Part shown: piece by piece, positions 283 through 9,422 of the stretch | How positions within the stretch are numbered: position 1 is the first letter of the stretch | Layout: every line of letters starts with the position of its first letter | DNA from: a virus | Taxonomy: Duplodnaviria > Caudoviricetes | Reading direction: 5' to 3' (one strand) | Virus record (IMG/VR): IMGVR_UViG_3300035396_000040 | Span: 1 to 41,995 of that record | DNA: 41,995 nucleotides | Position numbers and translations under genes: made by a program | Notes under the pieces: generated by a model | The model's database searches: none | What the model was told of the DNA's origin: nothing | The model's input: only the letters and a program-made list of their open reading frames with translations

Positions 283-311
283 TTGACAAGGTGCTTACAA
301 TAAAGTATATT
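283..311 (+). promoter_or_regulatory. sigma70 early promoter P1
   Basis: TTGACA (283-288) - 17 nt - TATATT (306-311). Confidence 0.7.
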
Positions 312-383: not shown

Positions 384-412
384 TTGACAAGCTTCACAGA
401 TGTATGTAGTAT
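384..412 (+). promoter_or_regulatory. sigma70 early promoter P2
   Basis: TTGACA (384-389) - 17 nt - TAGTAT (407-412). Confidence 0.8.
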
Positions 413-418
413 GTAGTC

Positions 419-1010
419 TAGCAGTACGGGAGACAAGCAATTAGCTTGTTGTTGTTCCCTTCTTTGAAAATTTACGGAATATCTAGATTGTTCGCATGTT
501 AGTAGTTCTGGCATGTGGCAAGCTTCATTAAATAGTATAAAGGCTTAACAAGCTCGATGTATAAACACGCTTAGTGCATGGACTGTGCGTTAGTAATCAT
601 CCCCTTGTTATGTCTGGCAGGATTCGGCTGTCTAATACATTTTCTCGCTACATGAAAGAATGAACACCGTCTTAAATGACAATGATTGTTCAATTGCCTG
701 ACATAAGGCTACAATTGTGTATAGATGTTCCCATCTTTAAAAATTCCCGTATGTACCCTTTGTTCCTTATTAGTTTGGTCTGAGACTATAGTAGTTCAGC
801 CATGCCGAAAGCCGCTATCATGAATTTCCTTACGAACAGTTCAAAGGTTTATCAAGTATCTAAATAAGATGCTCGAGCATACGGGATTCGCTTTAACTAT
901 CCGGCGGAATAAATAGGATACTTCGTAACGAGTAACTCGTTAAATTGTTGTTAATGCGTATTGGTAACAGTACGCATTCCCATGCAATTTTGCATGTTTA
1001 TAATCGAAAG
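419..1010 (+). ncRNA. candidate large structured non-coding RNA / 5' leader with boxA-like sites
   Basis: No credible ORF between P2 and the SD of ORF 1019; long-range helices 476-485/722-731, 608-619/695-706, 745-753/878-886 and many local hairpins; boxA-like TCTTTRAAAATT at 461-472 and 734-745. Confidence 0.6.
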
Positions 1011-1018
1011 GAAACATC

Positions 1019-1603
1019 ATGGCGCACATTACACAAATCAATGAATCTATCGAAACGCTGCAGAATGCAGAAAAGGTTACAAAGGCAGTTCTTTCGGAAC
1101 TGTCACGCTCTATTCTTGAATACATCTGTGTTGATACGGATGATGGAAAAGCATCAGAAGATAGCCAAGTAGCAAATCGGCTTATTGATGTTCTCACGCC
1201 AGTCAATAAGAAAGTGGCAGTAGAATTCTTTGTAAAGATGCTTCCTTTCCATGTTCTTCGTACTGAAGAAGGGGAATTCCAAGCCTTTGCGAAGAAGGAT
1301 AAGAAGCAATGGGAATCCAAGGTAGATAAGATTGTGGAATTCTTGTCTGATCCACATCAGAATATTTGGACGTGGGCAGAGCGTAATATTGAATTGGTGT
1401 CTAAGCCAATGGATTTTGCAAAGCTTAATCAAGCAATGGGACAATTGATTAAGAAGGCAACAAAGGCTAAGCTTGGGCATGATCATATCGTTCAAGCCAT
1501 GCTTGCTAATGGAATTAGCATGGAAGATATGATGGTAGTCATTAAGGCAGCCATTGTTGAACAGCCAAAGCCTGAAGAACAGGAACAACTGAAGGCAGCA
1601 TAA
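1019..1603 (+). CDS. early hypothetical protein (194 aa, predicted helical)
   Basis: SD AAGGA; protein-like composition; flanked by RNase III-like hairpins. Confidence 0.9.
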   Translation: MAHITQINESIETLQNAEKVTKAVLSELSRSILEYICVDTDDGKASEDSQVANRLIDVLTPVNKKVAVEFFVKMLPFHVLRTEEGEFQAFAKKDKKQWESKVDKIVEFLSDPHQNIWTWAERNIELVSKPMDFAKLNQAMGQLIKKATKAKLGHDHIVQAMLANGISMEDMMVVIKAAIVEQPKPEEQEQLKAA

Positions 1604-1681
1604 TTAAATTGTATTATCGAATGGCTTGGGAACAGGCCATTCTATTAATATAGTTTTCTTTTATCAACCAAGGGGAATAAT

Positions 1682-1806: not shown

Positions 1807-1891
1807 GCGGGTATGGTGAAATTGGGAAACACAAGATGCTTAAGACTTCTCGCCTATTGGCTTGTCGGTTCGAGTCCGACTACCCGCACCA
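1807..1891 (+). tRNA. tRNA-Leu(UAA)
   Basis: Acceptor stem GCGGGTA/TACCCGC, discriminator A, encoded CCA; anticodon loop CTTAAGA; long variable arm; T arm GTCGG-TTCGAGT-CCGAC. Confidence 0.95.
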
Positions 1892-2800: not shown

Positions 2801-2992
2801 ATGCGTCTCAACAATGTATTCATGTGTAAATCGGGAGTAATTGGGATGCAATTCAATTATGGGAAGCAAGCTATCCTAAGCGTTTATCACGATGGCAAGG
2901 CTCTTCAAGTAAGTGAAGACCATCCCGAGGTATTCCAGACACAAGCCATCAAGATGTATTCATTCTTGCATAATCGCTATAAGAGGCGTTAA
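2801..2992 (+). CDS. small hypothetical protein (63 aa)
   Basis: SD AAGGGG; tight packing. Confidence 0.7.
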   Translation: MRLNNVFMCKSGVIGMQFNYGKQAILSVYHDGKALQVSEDHPEVFQTQAIKMYSFLHNRYKRR

Positions 2993-3022
2993 AAGCGTCT
3001 TACCTATACCATCCTATCAATT

Positions 3023-3050
3023 AGCCCCTAGAAATCGCTCTAGGGGCTTT
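3023..3050 (+). terminator. terminator-like hairpin with an alternative pairing partner
   Basis: AGCCCCTAGA-aatcgc-TCTAGGGGCT followed by a short T run; second TTCTAGGGGC at 3059-3068. Confidence 0.45.
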
Positions 3051-3072
3051 CCTGTGCGTTCTAGGGGCATTT

Positions 3073-3336
3073 ATGAAGGGATACAAATGGGAATATATCA
3101 CTTATCTTGGAATCAGGAAGATTTCAAAGAGATATTTTCCTAACAAGGAGGAGTTTGTTAAATCAATTTCTCCTTATGATGTGGCTATCGGGCCAGTGTT
3201 AACAACTGAGAAATTTATTCTAAGGATACAATCATGGAAGAAGCCTTTGCGAAATGGTGGGAAGAAAAGCGTATTCGTGTTCTATTTATGTTTGATCAGG
3301 AACTTGGGTATGAAATCTTTGAAGAAATCTGGTTGA
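3073..3336 (+). CDS. hypothetical protein (87 aa); 3' part overlaps ORF 3234
   Basis: ORF track; SD AGGGG; uncertain because of ~100-nt overlap. Confidence 0.4.
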   Translation: MKGYKWEYITYLGIRKISKRYFPNKEEFVKSISPYDVAIGPVLTTEKFILRIQSWKKPLRNGGKKSVFVFYLCLIRNLGMKSLKKSG

Positions 3337-3365: not shown

Positions 3366-4149
3366 GAAACCTACTCTTAGTGTTTGTCTAAATAAAGCTA
3401 TAGATGCTCGTCCTCAGGATGGAAGGCTTAATGGATGGGGAATTAGATTTAAAACAGGACAAGATGTTATTGTTCCTTATCATATTTGTTGTTCTGATCT
3501 TAGACAGAAGAATTATGGAATACCTATTACAGAATTCATCTTCTCTATCAAACATAGGAAAGGTACAGGAGATTGGTTCAATCATCCACGTTATAATGAA
3601 TTTCTTTATTTCATGTTAAACCATTCCTTCATTAGTGATGTATTCCTCACCAAAAATATCAGGGTGGCTAATAGGTATGGTGTAAAGATGAATATAAAAT
3701 ACGATAGTAACCAAGTTCTTGCAGGATTCTTTTTCCTTCGTTGTGCATGGGAATATAAATACTATCTAAACTCATTCTTTTGGTTAGTAGATAAGGGAAT
3801 AGATAAGAATCTAGCTCTATGTATGTGCCAATATATTGAGAAAGATGGGAATAAAATCACTCGTAAATACAGGACAGGGCATACACCTTTCTCTGATTTA
3901 TCTAAGCCTGATTTAATCAATATCCTTAAGACAGACAGTTGGAAAGTAACGAATAAAAAACCTGTATCTTCTGGACAATTTCATGAGTTTAGAGTGAATG
4001 CTCTTTTTTCTCCAAACTATTTTGAAGGCTCAATCCTATTTGATAATTTACAAAAGAAAACTATAGGAAAAGGATGGGATAGTTATTCCACCTATCTAGC
4101 TACCGATGTGCTTAATAAAATTAAGGAGATGCAAGAATGGCTAAAGTAA
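3349..4149 (+). CDS. hypothetical protein (266 aa) at the head of the amidoligase cluster
   Basis: Long ORF, translationally coupled to the next gene. Confidence 0.85.
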   Translation: MQKKIKKPTLSVCLNKAIDARPQDGRLNGWGIRFKTGQDVIVPYHICCSDLRQKNYGIPITEFIFSIKHRKGTGDWFNHPRYNEFLYFMLNHSFISDVFLTKNIRVANRYGVKMNIKYDSNQVLAGFFFLRCAWEYKYYLNSFFWLVDKGIDKNLALCMCQYIEKDGNKITRKYRTGHTPFSDLSKPDLINILKTDSWKVTNKKPVSSGQFHEFRVNALFSPNYFEGSILFDNLQKKTIGKGWDSYSTYLATDVLNKIKEMQEWLK

Positions 4150-4769
4150 AACGTGTACTCATTGTGTGTAGTTCTAGTGACTATTATGATATGTTTCTTG
4201 ACAAAGGGTACGAGATTGTAACAGATATTACCAAGGCTAATCTTGTATGCTTCACTGGTGGATCGGATGTATCCCCTTCTATGTATGGAGAAGAGAAACA
4301 TCCTAAAGCTTATAATGATATGGTGAGAGATACACAAGAAGCTAATGTGTATAAGGAATGTATCAGTAAGAATATACCAATGGTAGGCGTCTGTAGGGGC
4401 GGGCAATTTTTAAATGTGATGAATGGTGGCAAGATGTATCAGCATGTTACCAATCATACAGGTAATCATAATATGTATGATGTCCTTTCTTCTCAGACTC
4501 TCATGTGTTCTTCCACTCATCATCAGATGATGCGTCCTTCAGATGAAGGAACCATCCTTGCATTTGCTAAGATGGGAGGAGTGAGAGAACATATGATTGG
4601 ACAGTGTGTCCATGCTAATATCGCTCCTCAAGATAGTATTGACCCTGAAGTAGTGTTCTATAAGAAAACACAATCTCTATGTTTTCAACCCCATCCTGAA
4701 TTTATGTCACCTATTTATGACGGACTACGTGCATATTTCTTTAACCTATTGAATCATTGCTTCCAATAG
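4137..4769 (+). CDS. class I glutamine amidotransferase / peptidase C26-like
   Basis: FTGGSDV, GVCRGGQ (nucleophile Cys), STHHQ, FQPHPE (His-x-Glu). Confidence 0.9.
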   Translation: MAKVKRVLIVCSSSDYYDMFLDKGYEIVTDITKANLVCFTGGSDVSPSMYGEEKHPKAYNDMVRDTQEANVYKECISKNIPMVGVCRGGQFLNVMNGGKMYQHVTNHTGNHNMYDVLSSQTLMCSSTHHQMMRPSDEGTILAFAKMGGVREHMIGQCVHANIAPQDSIDPEVVFYKKTQSLCFQPHPEFMSPIYDGLRAYFFNLLNHCFQ

Positions 4770-4787
4770 AAGCAGGAGGATTATAAA

Positions 4788-6056
4788 ATCTGTGGATTAG
4801 TTGGATGTGCTGGCCTTATAATGGCTAAAGAGGAGAAGCTATTCAAACAGCTTCTTATCGTAGATTCCCTAAGAGGAGAAGATAGTACAGGTATTGCAGC
4901 AGTGTTCACTAATGAAGAAACTACTATTACTAAACAAGTAGGTGATCCTTTCCTTCTGCTTGAGAATAAGCAGACAACAGATATATTTAAGCGTGGTATT
5001 CGTGTCCTTATTGGGCATAATCGTTGGGCTACAACAGGAAAGATTACCCGTAAGAATGCACATCCTTTTGAGACCCCCAATCTAATTGGTGCCCATAATG
5101 GGACACTCTCCAATAAGTATGAGATACCGGGCCACATGCAATATGATGTAGACTCTGAAGCCTTGCTTAATGCTATGGATGAGATTGGTGTGAAGCAAGC
5201 TATCATGAAGGCACGAGGCGCATGGGCATTAACATGGTATAACAAAGAAGAGAAGAGTATTAACTTTCTACGTAACAAAGAGCGTCCTCTTTACTATACA
5301 TACTCTTTAGATCATAAGGTGGTGTTCTGGGCTTCTGAACTATGGATGCTCCAATCTATCTTAGGTCGAGAAGATTATAAACACACTGAAGTTTATATGG
5401 TGCAAGAAGATTTCCATTATAAATGGATTGTGGAAATGAAGCAGGAAGGTATTGGAAAACCTTATATGACTGAGGTGAAGGGAGCAGAGCCTCTCCCTAT
5501 CAAGGGAGGTTTAGCCGTTACGACTACAGTGACTACTACGACTAGACAAACTCCCCCAAAACACCAATCCGTAAATCAAAGAAATCTATTTACAGAGAAC
5601 TCATTAGACGCCTCTTACCTTGATTCTTTTGTGGATATTAAAATAGTCTCTGAAACTAAAGATGAGAGTGGTTGCCCTTATCTTGTATGTGTAGATCAGG
5701 ACTTCCCTAATAGAGATTTACGGATTTACTTCCACAATGAAGTAGTGAGCAATCTAATTGGTTCCTATGGTTCGATTAATATTGTAGGGGCTAGGAGAAC
5801 TAAGAGCACAGCCTTTATCCACTATAAGGCTGATCTAAGTTCTTTTATTAAGGATGTTACTACAGATAGTACCCCTTGTGATAAGGATGGTAATCTAATA
5901 TCAGAGGATGATTTAAGAGATTTTTATAAAGAGTGCTGTTGGTGTTCTAGCCCTATTGACCATAACAATCCTGATAATTATTATGTAAGTAAAGGAACAG
6001 GGGCAGTATGTGCTGATTGTGCAATTAATCCAGAAATTCAACAGTATTTAATGTAA
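4788..6056 (+). CDS. class II (Ntn) glutamine amidotransferase with C-terminal Zn-finger extension; probable ATC start
   Basis: (M)CGLVG read upstream of the track start 4821; RGEDSTG, GHNRWAT, NAHPF, HNGT, DSE motifs; SD AGGAGG 8 nt before ATC 4788. Confidence 0.9.
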   Translation: MCGLVGCAGLIMAKEEKLFKQLLIVDSLRGEDSTGIAAVFTNEETTITKQVGDPFLLLENKQTTDIFKRGIRVLIGHNRWATTGKITRKNAHPFETPNLIGAHNGTLSNKYEIPGHMQYDVDSEALLNAMDEIGVKQAIMKARGAWALTWYNKEEKSINFLRNKERPLYYTYSLDHKVVFWASELWMLQSILGREDYKHTEVYMVQEDFHYKWIVEMKQEGIGKPYMTEVKGAEPLPIKGGLAVTTTVTTTTRQTPPKHQSVNQRNLFTENSLDASYLDSFVDIKIVSETKDESGCPYLVCVDQDFPNRDLRIYFHNEVVSNLIGSYGSINIVGARRTKSTAFIHYKADLSSFIKDVTTDSTPCDKDGNLISEDDLRDFYKECCWCSSPIDHNNPDNYYVSKGTGAVCADCAINPEIQQYLM

Positions 6057-6066
6057 GGAGATTATA

Positions 6067-6201
6067 ATGAAATTCTTATGTTGGCTCGGATTACATTCTT
6101 GGGGATTTTGGTCTGATCCTATTCAAGTGAATTATTCCGAGCTTCTTCATCAAGAGTGTAGATGTATTCATTGTGGTAAAATTATTCATCGTGTGATTTA
6201 G
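6067..6201 (+). CDS. small Cys/His protein (44 aa, MKFLCWLGLHSW...CRCIHCG), DUF1660-like
   Basis: Read from sequence; SD AAGGAG; CxxGxH...CxxC pattern. Confidence 0.75.
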   Translation: MKFLCWLGLHSWGFWSDPIQVNYSELLHQECRCIHCGKIIHRVI

Positions 6202-6210
6202 GAGATGTAA

Positions 6211-6372
6211 ATGGAAACAGTTGCTAGTCTTATTGAAAGATTAAAGAAATATCCTCCTCTTACGCCAATTAAATTCTGGGCTTCTGAAACAGAAGTTTTA
6301 TTTGTCTGTGACATTTCTATGAACTATTCAAAAACAAAACCAATCCTTAATATTTCTATGGAGTATGAGTAA
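6211..6372 (+). CDS. small hypothetical protein (53 aa, METVASLIERLKKYPP...)
   Basis: Read from sequence; SD AGGAG; fills gap exactly. Confidence 0.7.
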   Translation: METVASLIERLKKYPPLTPIKFWASETEVLFVCDISMNYSKTKPILNISMEYE

Positions 6373-7167
6373 ATGAAAATCCTGCTGGGCTGTGATCCCG
6401 AGGTCTTTGTAAAGCGTGATGGTGTCTTTCATTCAGCACATAATCTTATCCCCGGTGATAAGAAGAATCCTTTTAAGGTAGATAAGGGTGCTGTTCAGAT
6501 TGATGGTATGGCTCTTGAGTTTAATATTGAGCCAGCAGAATCATGTGAAGAATTTGTTACTAACATCAGTACAGTATATAATATTCTCAAGAGCATGGTT
6601 CCTGAATATCAAGTGTTTGCTGTACCTGTAGCTGATTTCACTCCTGAGATTATGAAGGCACAACCAGCAGCAGCATTGGAACTGGGATGTGATCCTGATT
6701 TCAATGCTTGGACTCAAAGTGAGAATGTTAAGCCTAATGGTGATCGTCCTATGCGTACTGCTTCAGGACATATCCATGTAGGATGGACTGATGGACAAGA
6801 TAAGAATGATTCTCAACATCAGGCACGTTGTAATGCTGTTATTAAGCAGCTAGACTTCTACCTTGGACTACCTTCCTTGTTTGTTGATAAGGATGAACGT
6901 CGTCGCTCTATGTATGGTAAGGCTGGATGCTTGCGATATAAACCCTATGGTGTGGAGTATCGTACTCTGAGTAACTTCTGGTTGAATAGCAAGGAACTGA
7001 TGGCTTGGGTGTATAATAACACTATCCTTGGTATGAATTCTCTCTTTAATGGTAATATGCTTTATGAGAAATATGGGGATATTCAAGCTATCATCAATCA
7101 ATCGGACAGAGATGCTGCTCTCTCAATCATCAATACAGAGAGTATCCCTTTCCCTAAAGGTGTGTAA
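6373..7167 (+). CDS. phiEco32-like COOH-NH2 ligase type 2
   Basis: LGCDPEVF, DGMALEFN, GCDPDFNAW, RTASGHIHVG, RRSMYGKAG, YGVEYRTLSNFW. Confidence 0.9.
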   Translation: MKILLGCDPEVFVKRDGVFHSAHNLIPGDKKNPFKVDKGAVQIDGMALEFNIEPAESCEEFVTNISTVYNILKSMVPEYQVFAVPVADFTPEIMKAQPAAALELGCDPDFNAWTQSENVKPNGDRPMRTASGHIHVGWTDGQDKNDSQHQARCNAVIKQLDFYLGLPSLFVDKDERRRSMYGKAGCLRYKPYGVEYRTLSNFWLNSKELMAWVYNNTILGMNSLFNGNMLYEKYGDIQAIINQSDRDAALSIINTESIPFPKGV

Positions 7168-7778
7168 TGTTTAAAGATGCTAGTCTTGATGACTTAAAGA
7201 TGATGTTTGCTAAAACCATCATTAGGTATAAAGAGTTTCCTGTATTCGTTGAAGATGTGGCGATTAGTAGGGATGAGAAAGTGATGCTTGAACTCTACTC
7301 TCTCTCTACTGGTGAATGTAAATGGTATCCTTTTAATGAGGAAGATTATAATTTTAAACCTGTTAGACTTGGTTATCTTAATCTACGTGGTTTCTCCTAT
7401 TACCTCTATCGCAAACCAGTACGTAAATATAAACAAGGACTAGCATTAGAATCTCTAGCTATTGTTGATTCTGGATACCATTTTCTTGATAATGAGGAAA
7501 GAGGTAGGTCACAAAAAGTCTATAAGTCGATAAAAGAGTTGCATAGTAAAGAATTAGTTGCTACAATTAAAGGATACTATCCCTCTCTTAAAGATGCTCT
7601 CACTATGTTTGAGGATATGGCATGTGAGGTGGCATTTGATAGGCAATTCTCAATTGATAGGAAAATGAATATCTTCTATAAAGGTTGTCCTGTTGGATGT
7701 TATGAGGATGGAAAAATCTCATTCAATAAAGGTCAAGAATATCTTTCTAATGCTTTAAGGAAAAATTATGAAATTTAG
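7167..7778 (+). CDS. hypothetical protein within amidoligase cluster (203 aa)
   Basis: Coupled ORF between the two ligases. Confidence 0.85.
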   Translation: MFKDASLDDLKMMFAKTIIRYKEFPVFVEDVAISRDEKVMLELYSLSTGECKWYPFNEEDYNFKPVRLGYLNLRGFSYYLYRKPVRKYKQGLALESLAIVDSGYHFLDNEERGRSQKVYKSIKELHSKELVATIKGYYPSLKDALTMFEDMACEVAFDRQFSIDRKMNIFYKGCPVGCYEDGKISFNKGQEYLSNALRKNYEI

Positions 7779-8673
7779 TGACATTCTAGGTGCATATGGG
7801 AAAGATAAATGCATCACCTCTAAAGATATTGGAATTGAAATTGAGGTAGAAGGTAGAAACTTACCCAAGATTGATAATTCTTACTGGGTAACTGTGAAGG
7901 ATGGTTCTCTTCGTGGAGAGTCTTACGAATATGTGAGTAATGGGCCACAATATCTCAACAAAGTTCCTCTAATCCTTAAATCACTTAAGAATCGATTAAA
8001 GGATTCTGAATTAAATTTATCATATAGAACAAGTGTTCATATCCACATGAACATGACACAAGAAACTCTTCAAACAATTCAATCCACTGTATATCTCTAC
8101 CTCTTGTTTGAGGATGCCCTTTTAAATTATGCAGGTGAATCCCGTAAAGGTAATAGATTTTGTCTAGGATTTAAGGATGCTGAAGGTTTAGTAGGGAGTG
8201 TCCTCCAATATCTCACACCAAATACTATTATGCATGTTAATGGAGAAGAAGTCCGTTATGCTTCTATTAATATAGCTTCTCTTCCCAAGTATGGAACATT
8301 AGAATTTCGTGCATTACGTGGCACAGTAGATGAGAAAGTTCTCCTTCCTTGGATTAACATTCTATTTAAATTAAGAGAAATTGCTAGGTATGTATCTCCC
8401 GAGGATATATACAACCTCTCTATGAAAAAAGGTACAGAGGGATTTGCAAGAGATACTCTCCAAGAATATTTCAATATATATTACTACGATAGTATGTATG
8501 AGGATATTGATTATAATCGTAGTTGTTTGATTGATATTCCTTTTAAATTTACTACTAATGCCCTCCTTCCTCTCCCACAGAAACGGATAATAAAACAACG
8601 TATTATTCTTGATGAGTTTAATGAAGAGGGGGAAGAGGAGCAACCTGATGAAGAAGATGAGGATGGAGAATGA
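7768..8673 (+). CDS. putative amidoligase (Amidoligase_2 / COOH-NH2 ligase fold) with acidic tail
   Basis: GIEIEVE, DGSLR, EYVS, SVHIHMN, GTLEFR motifs. Confidence 0.88.
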   Translation: MKFSDILGAYGKDKCITSKDIGIEIEVEGRNLPKIDNSYWVTVKDGSLRGESYEYVSNGPQYLNKVPLILKSLKNRLKDSELNLSYRTSVHIHMNMTQETLQTIQSTVYLYLLFEDALLNYAGESRKGNRFCLGFKDAEGLVGSVLQYLTPNTIMHVNGEEVRYASINIASLPKYGTLEFRALRGTVDEKVLLPWINILFKLREIARYVSPEDIYNLSMKKGTEGFARDTLQEYFNIYYYDSMYEDIDYNRSCLIDIPFKFTTNALLPLPQKRIIKQRIILDEFNEEGEEEQPDEEDEDGE

Positions 8674-9422
8674 AAAAGTTATTCCTATATAGCTACAATC
8701 GTGGAGATAGTGCTAAGGCTTTGAAAGAAGCTCTAGGATGTAAGCTTATCGCTCTTGAGAACTCTAGGTATAAAGGTTCTCAAGATAAGGTGGTGATTAA
8801 TTGGGGATGTTCCTCCCTCCCTGATGAAGTGATGAAGAGTGTAGTTCTCAATCACCCTAATGCTATTAAGAAGGCTGTTGATAAGCGTCTGTCCTTTGAA
8901 TCATTTAAGGAAGTGATGGAGACTACCCCATTCACTACCAACAAGGAAGAAGCTATTGAGTGGATCAAGAAAGGAAAGGAAGTGGTAGTACGTGGAAAGG
9001 TTAATGGTCATGGAGGAGAAGGTATCTCTCTCTGCTCTAATGAACAAGAGCTTCCTGATGCCCCTCTTTATACCCAATATATCCCTAAGACTGAGGAGTA
9101 TCGTGTTCATGTGTTTCAAGGGAAGATTATCTTTAGACAACGTAAGGCACGTAGCTTTGATGTACCTAATGATAAGGTTAATTGGAAGGTGCGTAATCTA
9201 GCTGGTGGATTCATCTTTGCTAATCAGGAGATTATTCTGACACAAGCATGTGAAGACATGGCTATCCTTTCTGTTAAATCTCTTGGGCTAGATTTTGGAT
9301 CAGTGGATATTATCTACAATAAGACACGAGATGCGTATTACGTTTTAGAAGTTAATACCGCATCAGGGCTTCAAGGGAAAACCTTAGAGGCTTATGTAGG
9401 AGCTTTTAAAGAATGTGTATAA
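8670..9422 (+). CDS. ATP-grasp (RimK-like) peptide ligase
   Basis: INWG, DK, GHGGEG, YTQYI, EYRVHV, GLDFGSVD, VLEVNTASGL. Confidence 0.9.
   Translation: MKKLFLYSYNRGDSAKALKEALGCKLIALENSRYKGSQDKVVINWGCSSLPDEVMKSVVLNHPNAIKKAVDKRLSFESFKEVMETTPFTTNKEEAIEWIKKGKEVVVRGKVNGHGGEGISLCSNEQELPDAPLYTQYIPKTEEYRVHVFQGKIIFRQRKARSFDVPNDKVNWKVRNLAGGFIFANQEIILTQACEDMAILSVKSLGLDFGSVDIIYNKTRDAYYVLEVNTASGLQGKTLEAYVGAFKECV

Follow-up and report, generated by a model that had tools for sequence, protein, structure and literature searches.

The rRNA operons (rrn) of bacteria carry a boxB-boxA-boxC signal and are transcribed with a complex of NusA, NusB, NusE, NusG, SuhB and S4 (PMC10250234; PMC8632103; PMC13753749). 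BoxA binds NusB-S10 and nucleates the complex, Rho is blocked (PMC8632103; PMC13753749), and the RNA just behind boxA stays fixed at the exit channel as the rest of the transcript is looped out (PMC8632103); boxA alone has been reported to be sufficient (PMC13753749). The boxA consensus is given as GYTCTTTAANA for gammaproteobacteria (PMC5725501) and as AUGAUCUUUGAAA for B. subtilis (PMC13753749). In phage T7, boxA is presented as an anti-termination element for host polymerase in a source that cites Savalia 2010 (PMC3709561). The T7 sequence GCTCTTTAACAA lies 65 nt after promoter A3 and about 110 nt before gene 0.3. No N protein of T7 is known to us. The Nus factors are thought to chaperone rRNA folding, with the post-boxA RNA held and the transcript looped out, and we know of few natural substrates of such chaperoning other than rRNA.

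The stretch of DNA analyzed here (referred to as the window; 41,995 nt, CheckV completeness 86%) is a Zobellviridae-like podophage with genes in two converging blocks, the replication and metabolic genes being on the + strand and the terminase, portal, capsid and tail genes on the - strand. Its terminase is 68-72% identical to those of PA11- and VPMCC5-like phages, a sigma factor is encoded by the phage, and no RNA polymerase was matched among the 39 window proteins scanned. At the ORF-poor head of the early (+) block lies an RNA leader with two boxA-like motifs; paired boxAs bracketing a folded domain recall, by analogy, the layout of an rRNA operon in miniature. The features concerned are as follows.

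283..311, +, promoter P1, sigma70-type TTGACA-17-TATATT (11/12, consensus match only)
384..412, +, promoter P2, sigma70-type TTGACA-17-TAGTAT (10/12 consensus match; spacer sequence common to relative L031)
428..459, +, 5' hairpin, placed as boxB is in rrn (p 0.81-0.97)
459..471, +, boxA-like motif 1, core TCTTTGAAA, equal to the B. subtilis core and predicted mostly unpaired
476..731, +, domain 1, multibranch, 256 nt, with a predicted 10-bp closing helix 476-485/722-731
732..744, +, boxA-like motif 2, ATCTTTAAAA, 9/11 to consensus, without its own promoter
745..886, +, domain 2, 142 nt, closing helix 745-754/877-886, paralogous to the 5' half of domain 1 but diverged from it
814..821, +, GCTATCAY motif, of the word family that ranks second by enrichment in the leaders of relatives
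887..996, +, 3' hairpin cluster 887-908, 926-942, 953-978 and 981-996 (fold prediction)
1019..1603, +, first early gene (194 aa), conserved in Zobellviridae
1619..1642, +, GNRA-capped hairpin, second of its family, just 3' of gene 1019
1807..1891, +, predicted tRNA-Leu(TAA), likely on the same early transcript

Related loci and database searches

Among the related loci, L009 is identical to the window and L041 and L061 are the contig of L031, none of these being independent. The leader sets were compiled without the closest homologues, P0002-P0009 (60-80% identical), and without L010, L014, L017, L020, L025, L026 and L064, which have less than 350 nt upstream. L034 (upstream GC 0.58) was not included in the leader counts, as the DNA ahead of its gene resembles coding sequence of bacteria; at positions 1-1600 of this locus, on a 3-kb contig of a metagenome-assembled genome, the gene-1019 homologue adjoins GC-rich, bacterial-looking DNA, which is likely a chimeric join.

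In Rfam 15, the window gave no match at the gathering thresholds (lowest E 0.61, far below them), and the window together with 14 related loci gave no match except tRNA. BLAST of 300-1100 against 50,697 phage records returned three weak matches, two of which (one phage, filed twice) covered the promoter only, and BLAST of the L031 leader returned none. Exact domain-2 DNA patterns occurred neither in viral contigs nor in GTDB genomes, so that no bacterial chromosomal copy was seen, and a hairpin-boxA pattern search retrieved 24 loci, only the contig of L031 being relevant. Among the sequencing runs listed as carrying the sequence none was an RNA run, which has no bearing on expression.

The early leader and its fold

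The gap 265-1018 (754 nt) is the longest among the 54 listed genes and ORFs, in line with a preliminary description of this DNA, which had pointed to an ORF-free stretch in an otherwise dense genome; the second longest, 6057-6372, measures 316 nt. That the stretch holds no credible ORF was equally borne out: + strand ORFs wholly within 419-1010 reach 35 aa at most, and the Shine-Dalgarno duplexes of the leader ORFs are -2.9 kcal/mol or weaker, as compared to -3.6 to -7.6 kcal/mol for eight genes. The near-consensus sigma70 promoter proposed earlier corresponds to P2, but the better P1 upstream had been overlooked. An inverted repeat at 268-305 carries the P1 -35 hexamer in its loop and is a possible operator or terminator of the upstream gene. 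No strong terminator requiring read-through was found. Further downstream, a cluster of amidotransferase, COOH-NH2 ligase, amidoligase and ATP-grasp genes (4137-9422) resembles that of related podophages.

Region 419-1010 folds at -163.2 kcal/mol (z -3.59), with one of 100 shuffles as good. When 592-nt tiles were placed at alternate positions over about the first two-thirds of the window, with 15 shuffles each, this region had the lowest z of 24 tiles (-4.45; next -2.47). Blind 150-nt tiles, which cut the domains, left the leader unremarkable (z -0.5, +0.9, +0.3 and -2.7), so the folding signal is long-range; the lowest values of this tiling (-3.7 and -4.0) were seen at 2821-3120, among small early genes. 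For the whole region, z is -3.59 on the + strand and -2.64 on the - strand, and the per-domain values, which are biased because the boundaries were picked from the fold, are -3.0 and -1.0 for domain 1, -3.2 and -2.6 for domain 2, and -3.5 and -3.7 for the 3' cluster (+ and - strand, respectively). The strand asymmetry is modest overall and clear for domain 1 only, and G-U pairs make up 16 of the 151 centroid pairs; the earlier argument that G-U richness favors the + strand was not confirmed. The fold z, the lack of ORFs and the lack of an Rfam match support the view that a structured, untranslated and uncatalogued RNA heads the early operon.

Both closing helices named in the preliminary description were predicted, that of domain 1 with p 0.79 and that of domain 2, placed there at 745-753/878-886, in the slightly longer form listed above (p 0.98); the hairpins expected after domain 2 were predicted at 926-942, 953-978 and 981-996 (p 0.86-0.97). 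Inside domain 1, a hairpin at 493-517, a long arm at 541-615 and a hairpin at 616-632 are predicted. The GCATGTTAG/CTGGCATGT hairpin was confirmed, though at 494-516 rather than 495-517. A further helix, 608-619/695-706, is 11/12 complementary, yet its pair probability is 0.00 and a fold forced to contain it is 6.1 kcal/mol less favorable, as it is outcompeted by 541-552/604-615 and 616-632. A hairpin similar to that at 428-459 precedes boxA in L031, and a version with a longer stem occurs in an X2 contig. A 14/15 antisense match links 168-182, within the 71-aa gene (49-264), to 559-573 in the long arm of domain 1; this match was picked post hoc, and 5 of 300 shuffles give one. A tRNA-like reading of TAGTTCAG was discarded, as ARAGORN found none.

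Two short elements recur outside the boxA motifs. GCTATCA was counted 23 times in 14 of 26 leaders as compared to 2.5 expected, and all six GCTATCAY copies of the window follow the direction of transcription; the motif lies variously in a hairpin loop, in a helix strand or within short ORFs. A fixed GCTATCAY hairpin loop is not general across relatives, and an alternative domain-2 helix using the motif costs 3.4 kcal/mol. The second element is a family of GNRA-capped hairpins between early genes, TT(A/G)-GNRA-(T/C)AG on a stem of 7-17 bp, which was present in 11 of 37 related loci (12 sense, 0 antisense) and brackets gene 1019 in the window (953-978 and 1619-1642). It is often followed by a second hairpin, like that at 981-996. 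The GNRA-capped hairpin is a candidate processing, stabilizing or protein-binding site.

The sense-only recurrence of these hairpins on either side of gene 1019, the recurrence of GCTATCAY and the location at the operon head would fit direct binding of RNA polymerase by put-like RNAs, or an N-analog role of the 194-aa protein at boxB-like sites. We regard this as very unlikely, since the 194-aa protein is modeled as a compact helical fold (pLDDT 90), whereas N is described as unstructured (PMC8632103), and since neither a sequence or fold link of this protein to RNA-binding families nor an Rfam match was found. The protein matches 32 phage records at 25-39% identity; the eight examined, including CVT22, CW02, Pecta, VPMCC5 and PS32B, are all Zobellviridae, and its family has 381 representatives. 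No PHROG, no Pfam family at cut-off and no PDB entry (Foldseek) was matched by it, and the 71-aa protein likewise matched neither a PHROG nor a Pfam family at cut-off. The best VIA hits of the 194-aa model (Z 5.9, rmsd 3.2, 90 aligned) are unrelated helical proteins, the Atlas clusters are unnamed, and its structural look-alikes are uncharacterized proteins of RSB3, Spp16, tf, TL, Percy and other podophages (E 1e-3 to 6e-2). The look-alikes suggest that it belongs to a widespread unstudied family. A ribonucleoprotein of the leader with this protein, as put forward previously, was not supported: small genes or a tRNA gene intervene in many relatives, and neither a known fold nor a known family could be assigned to the protein.

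BoxA-like motifs in the window and in related leaders

A direct repeat, 453-472 and 726-745, holds TCTTTGAAAA and TCTTTAAAAA, and each boxA-like motif occupies a linker that immediately follows a helix and leads straight into the next domain. Motif 1 carries the B. subtilis core UCUUUGAAA, lies 48 nt after the P2 -10 and has the hairpin 428-459 directly 5' of it, while motif 2 carries the AUCUUU start of the B. subtilis sequence. Both are 9/11 matches to the gammaproteobacterial consensus, the first G missing, and the boxA of the host may differ from this consensus. TCTTTNAMAA occurs three times in the window, twice in the leader and once antisense to a late gene, and two copies were found in none of 2000 shuffles of 265-1018. 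The two motifs of the window are likely functional. Among the roles considered in the preliminary description, that of an antiterminator is retained; both boxA-like motifs and the diverged module duplication described below had been overlooked in it.

In 24 related loci, TCTTTNAMAA was found 22 times in sense in 27 kb of upstream DNA (14 of 24 loci) and never antisense, as compared to one sense match in 51 kb downstream; 200 shuffles give a mean of 0.37 and a maximum of 2. Because this pattern had been chosen after seeing the loci, the count was repeated with the published consensus: exact GYTCTTTAANA has 26 matches in the leaders of 17 of 25 relatives, none of them antisense, and boxA words rank first in an unguided word count. 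No shared word was found in this count at the position of boxC. The cultured phages VPMCC5 and PS32B have no core match in 1.5 kb, Pecta has none under the strict pattern, and for CVT22 only 563 nt were examined. Matches to CCGCTATCAT in L026, L017 and L020 are apparent only, as they fall in coding DNA.

The strict sense bias of boxA (26 versus 0) and the G-U-tolerant compensatory changes in relatives (see below) argue against the repeats being DNA-level signals, such as an injection stop, an origin or an end-processing site, or chance features of a duplicated promoter region. Such an origin, for which the position near the genome end, the folding of the minus strand as well (z -2.64) and the unremarkable 150-nt tiles would speak, is hardly credible to us.

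Up to four boxAs occur per leader, many behind strong promoters of their own: 18 of 34 boxAs have a sigma70-type promoter 8-80 nt upstream as compared to a background of 16%, and the others have none. This abundance would suit a leader that titrates NusB-S10 or SuhB away from host rrn operons and disturbs ribosome synthesis. We consider such a sponge improbable, as use in cis, and not titration, accounts for the closing helix whose position follows that of each boxA (described next), and the single boxA of T7 acts on its own transcript (PMC3709561). For an anti-defense sponge, which had also been suggested, no support was found.

Paired boxA motifs bracket domains predicted to fold

Consecutive boxAs 180-380 nt apart were treated as pairs, the pattern being loosened to variants already seen, which yielded 19 pairs in 15 of 30 leaders, 13 of them without a promoter before the second box. 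In these 13, the 25-nt stretch following the first boxA is complementary to that preceding the second: the mean energy of the closing duplex is -12.5 kcal/mol for cognate as compared to -7.2 ± 3.0 kcal/mol for non-cognate combinations, the cognate partner ranks third or better of 19 in 11 pairs, and nine pairs beat 95% of the 25-mers from the same locus. In the window, which fits a boxA-helix...helix-boxA bracket of 180-350 nt, the closing strands of 476/731 are each other's best partner of 19 and beat all 1115 25-mers of the same region. The two misses are L029 (-885) and L061, a small hairpin being inserted before the second box of the latter, where the closing helix is still predicted (p 0.94). 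When a promoter separates the boxes, one of six pairs passes, and that one rests on a weak promoter call. The closing helices, 10 bp long in the window and 10-17 bp across the set, have unrelated sequences between most of these phages, and the bracketed pairs include that of the cultured Salinivibrio phage CW02 (L007).

The relative L031 (45% protein identity) shares with the window the promoter spacer, the first hairpin and the order of parts, promoter-hairpin-boxA-domain-boxA, whereas its closing helix differs in sequence and measures 17 bp. A model of the window's domain 2 returned the second domain of L031 as joint-second match (E 0.82), which is not significant alone. Model R1, which is a one-sequence model because it was built from the window and its identical copy L028, found no significant relative.

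Module duplication and conservation of the domains

Modules 1 and 2 of the window resemble each other (local score 210 as compared to 141 ± 18), and so do domains 1 and 2 after removal of boxA (159 as compared to 97 ± 13), in each case with none of 1000 shuffles scoring as high; the blocks common to both modules are collinear and come after each boxA. Based on this sequence similarity, the leader appears to be the product of a tandem duplication of a boxA-headed unit. Low-depth contigs (depth <8) from two other runs, X2 and X3, match 649-819 at 96-99%. The X2 contig differs from the window at 2 of 151 positions over 669-819, both in the boxA-2 linker (732-744), and X2 pieces on the gene are 81-85% alike, although these may derive from another phage than the leader contig.

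Segments taken blindly after boxA in relatives have a mean fold z of -3.1, with 23 of 33 at -2 or lower, as compared to -0.65 and -1.38 for coding and upstream controls, of which 1 of 17 and 4 of 13, respectively, reach that level. L063 and L060 can be aligned across the whole domain, and 21 of 67 pairs, in a structure derived from these two sequences themselves, change on both sides while none is broken. A search with a model of their core retrieves L061 (E 0.004) and L015 (E 0.006), and in the alignment of the four, which was fitted and thus leans toward the structure, 19 of 32 pairs are double-sided. The domains are presumably under selection as RNA folds. Between the covarying stems lies a GTGTCG/GYCTCC internal loop, found in 6 to 7 loci, in L029, L030 and L065 by pattern. 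The positions of this RNA are as follows.

L063, 1355-1445, GTGTCG/GYCTCC RNA
L030, 1368-1457, GTGTCG/GYCTCC RNA
L065, 1297-1383, GTGTCG/GYCTCC RNA
L015, 756-843, GTGTCG/GYCTCC RNA
L060, 1545-1632, - strand, GTGTCG/GYCTCC RNA
L061, 1646-1734, - strand, GTGTCG/GYCTCC RNA
L029, 3228-3292, - strand, GTGTCG/GYCTCC RNA

The GTGTCG/GYCTCC RNA is an uncatalogued family and is better supported than the window's own domain. With MAFFT and RNAalifold, hardly any consensus emerged from six or seven sequences, the alignment being poor. Within 476-886 of the window, the L063/L060 model found nothing better than E 7, this model being weak as it misses L029, L030 and L065 too, and the loop is absent from the window domains. 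The frame is therefore common to the window and its relatives, and homology of the core is unsupported; the compensatory changes support the domain in the four relatives L063, L060, L061 and L015, not that of the window.

That 6 to 7 loci keep the loop while the stems around it covary freely is also what would be expected of an RNA that acts in trans, with the boxAs serving an rRNA-like cassette whose 250-nt domain is folded on the Nus complex, trimmed out and used as a protein decoy, scaffold or regulator. In 11 of 13 pairs, the bracket has a boxA immediately on either side, as 16S has with the leader and spacer boxA, the window has duplicated the module, and the X2 and X3 contigs (depth <8, possibly another phage) keep 649-819 at 96-99% as compared to 81-85% for the X2 gene pieces, all of which would fit this reading. 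On the other hand, RNase III processing requires about two helical turns, for which the closing helix is short, the loop motif of the relatives is absent from the window, and no terminator ends the RNA, which runs into the ribosome-binding site of gene 1019. We therefore regard a trans-acting product as possible but doubtful. In a more far-reaching form of this reading, which we likewise regard as possible but doubtful, Zobellviridae would carry miniature rRNA-operon-like cassettes in which host ribosome-assembly chaperones fold a 250-nt RNA into a particle with conserved ligand-binding loops. If this were true, the product would be a non-coding RNA of a new class, synthesized by the phage within the first minute of infection, and Nus-chaperoned folding could be studied on a short natural substrate outside rRNA, the cassette being duplicated in this phage.

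Discussion

Since a boxA-like signal heads each module, the phage likely borrows the host machinery for rRNA transcription, and by analogy with rrn we consider it rather probable that the region is a leader that works in cis and, independently of N, recruits the Nus factors of the host. The domains most likely act in cis, in an antitermination or transcript-stability apparatus. Judging from the promoter consensus, host polymerase would start at P1 or P2, and the boxA motifs would load an rRNA-type Nus complex (NusB-S10, NusG, NusA, SuhB) onto it, as in rrn. The complex would carry the polymerase through 600 ribosome-free bases into the early genes in the absence of a phage N protein and would block Rho, for which a ribosome-free leader of 600 nt and an early region of short genes would be natural targets. 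The RNA 3' of boxA would be held at the exit channel, and the closing helix, which starts within 5 nt of the boxA end, where such a tether would hold the strand, would form when its partner emerges 250 nt later; the second boxA would then reload the complex for the next module. Against the cis-acting leader counts that the conserved internal loops of the relatives exceed the needs of a cis spacer, and that in the window the motifs match at 9/11, no boxC was noticed and the closing helices have 10 bp.

The chaperone model predicts a layout like that of these leaders, whose long-range helix, unrelated in sequence from phage to phage, opens right behind one boxA and closes right ahead of the following one. 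The bracketed leaders are small enough for mutation and probing, and one is present in the cultured phage CW02. If the cis reading holds, N-independent use of host antitermination extends beyond T7 to Zobellviridae. In the literature searched, no description of a boxA or leader RNA in Zobellviridae and no earlier description of a paired-boxA bracket around a folded domain in this family was found, although subscription papers or supplements may hold one; the Klyazma paper mentions neither 'promoter' nor 'non-coding'. The term 'undescribed system', used in the preliminary description, is too strong for the boxA part because T7 has a boxA behind its early promoters, but it stands for the bracketed domain; the boxA trick being already known, the surprise is limited.

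Among the known systems, GOLLD and ROOL are likewise large, multi-domain, untranslated RNAs near a tRNA gene, whereas the window has no Rfam match and its RNA runs into an mRNA leader. The nut/N system of lambda and put of HK022 also comprise cis-acting RNA near early promoters that modifies host polymerase. However, nut has boxA followed by boxB, whereas the window has the rrn-type order of hairpin then boxA, and no N-like protein was found among the 194-aa protein, the model of which is folded, and the 71-aa protein. Put RNAs are several-fold shorter than the window domains.

T7 is closer in being a lytic podophage with host promoters A1-A3 and an rrn-type boxA before gene 0.3, but its boxA is the only one in 300-1500, and a bracketed 250-nt domain is absent. 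The closest likeness in layout is to the rrn leader and spacer, with tandem promoters, boxA preceded by a hairpin, a long-range helix whose first strand comes immediately behind boxA, another boxA once the enclosed RNA has ended and a tRNA downstream (PMC10250234; PMC8632103; PMC13753749). The phage leader differs in enclosing 256 and 142 nt that are not rRNA (no Rfam rRNA match), in its 9/11 boxA variant, in that no boxC was noticed, in an RNA that continues into mRNA, and in a closing helix of 10 bp as compared to the 25-40 bp stated for the rrn leader-trailer helix (PMC10250234). Taken together, boxA in the leader of a lytic phage is already known from T7, and the predicted folded domain bracketed by boxAs appears to be the new part.
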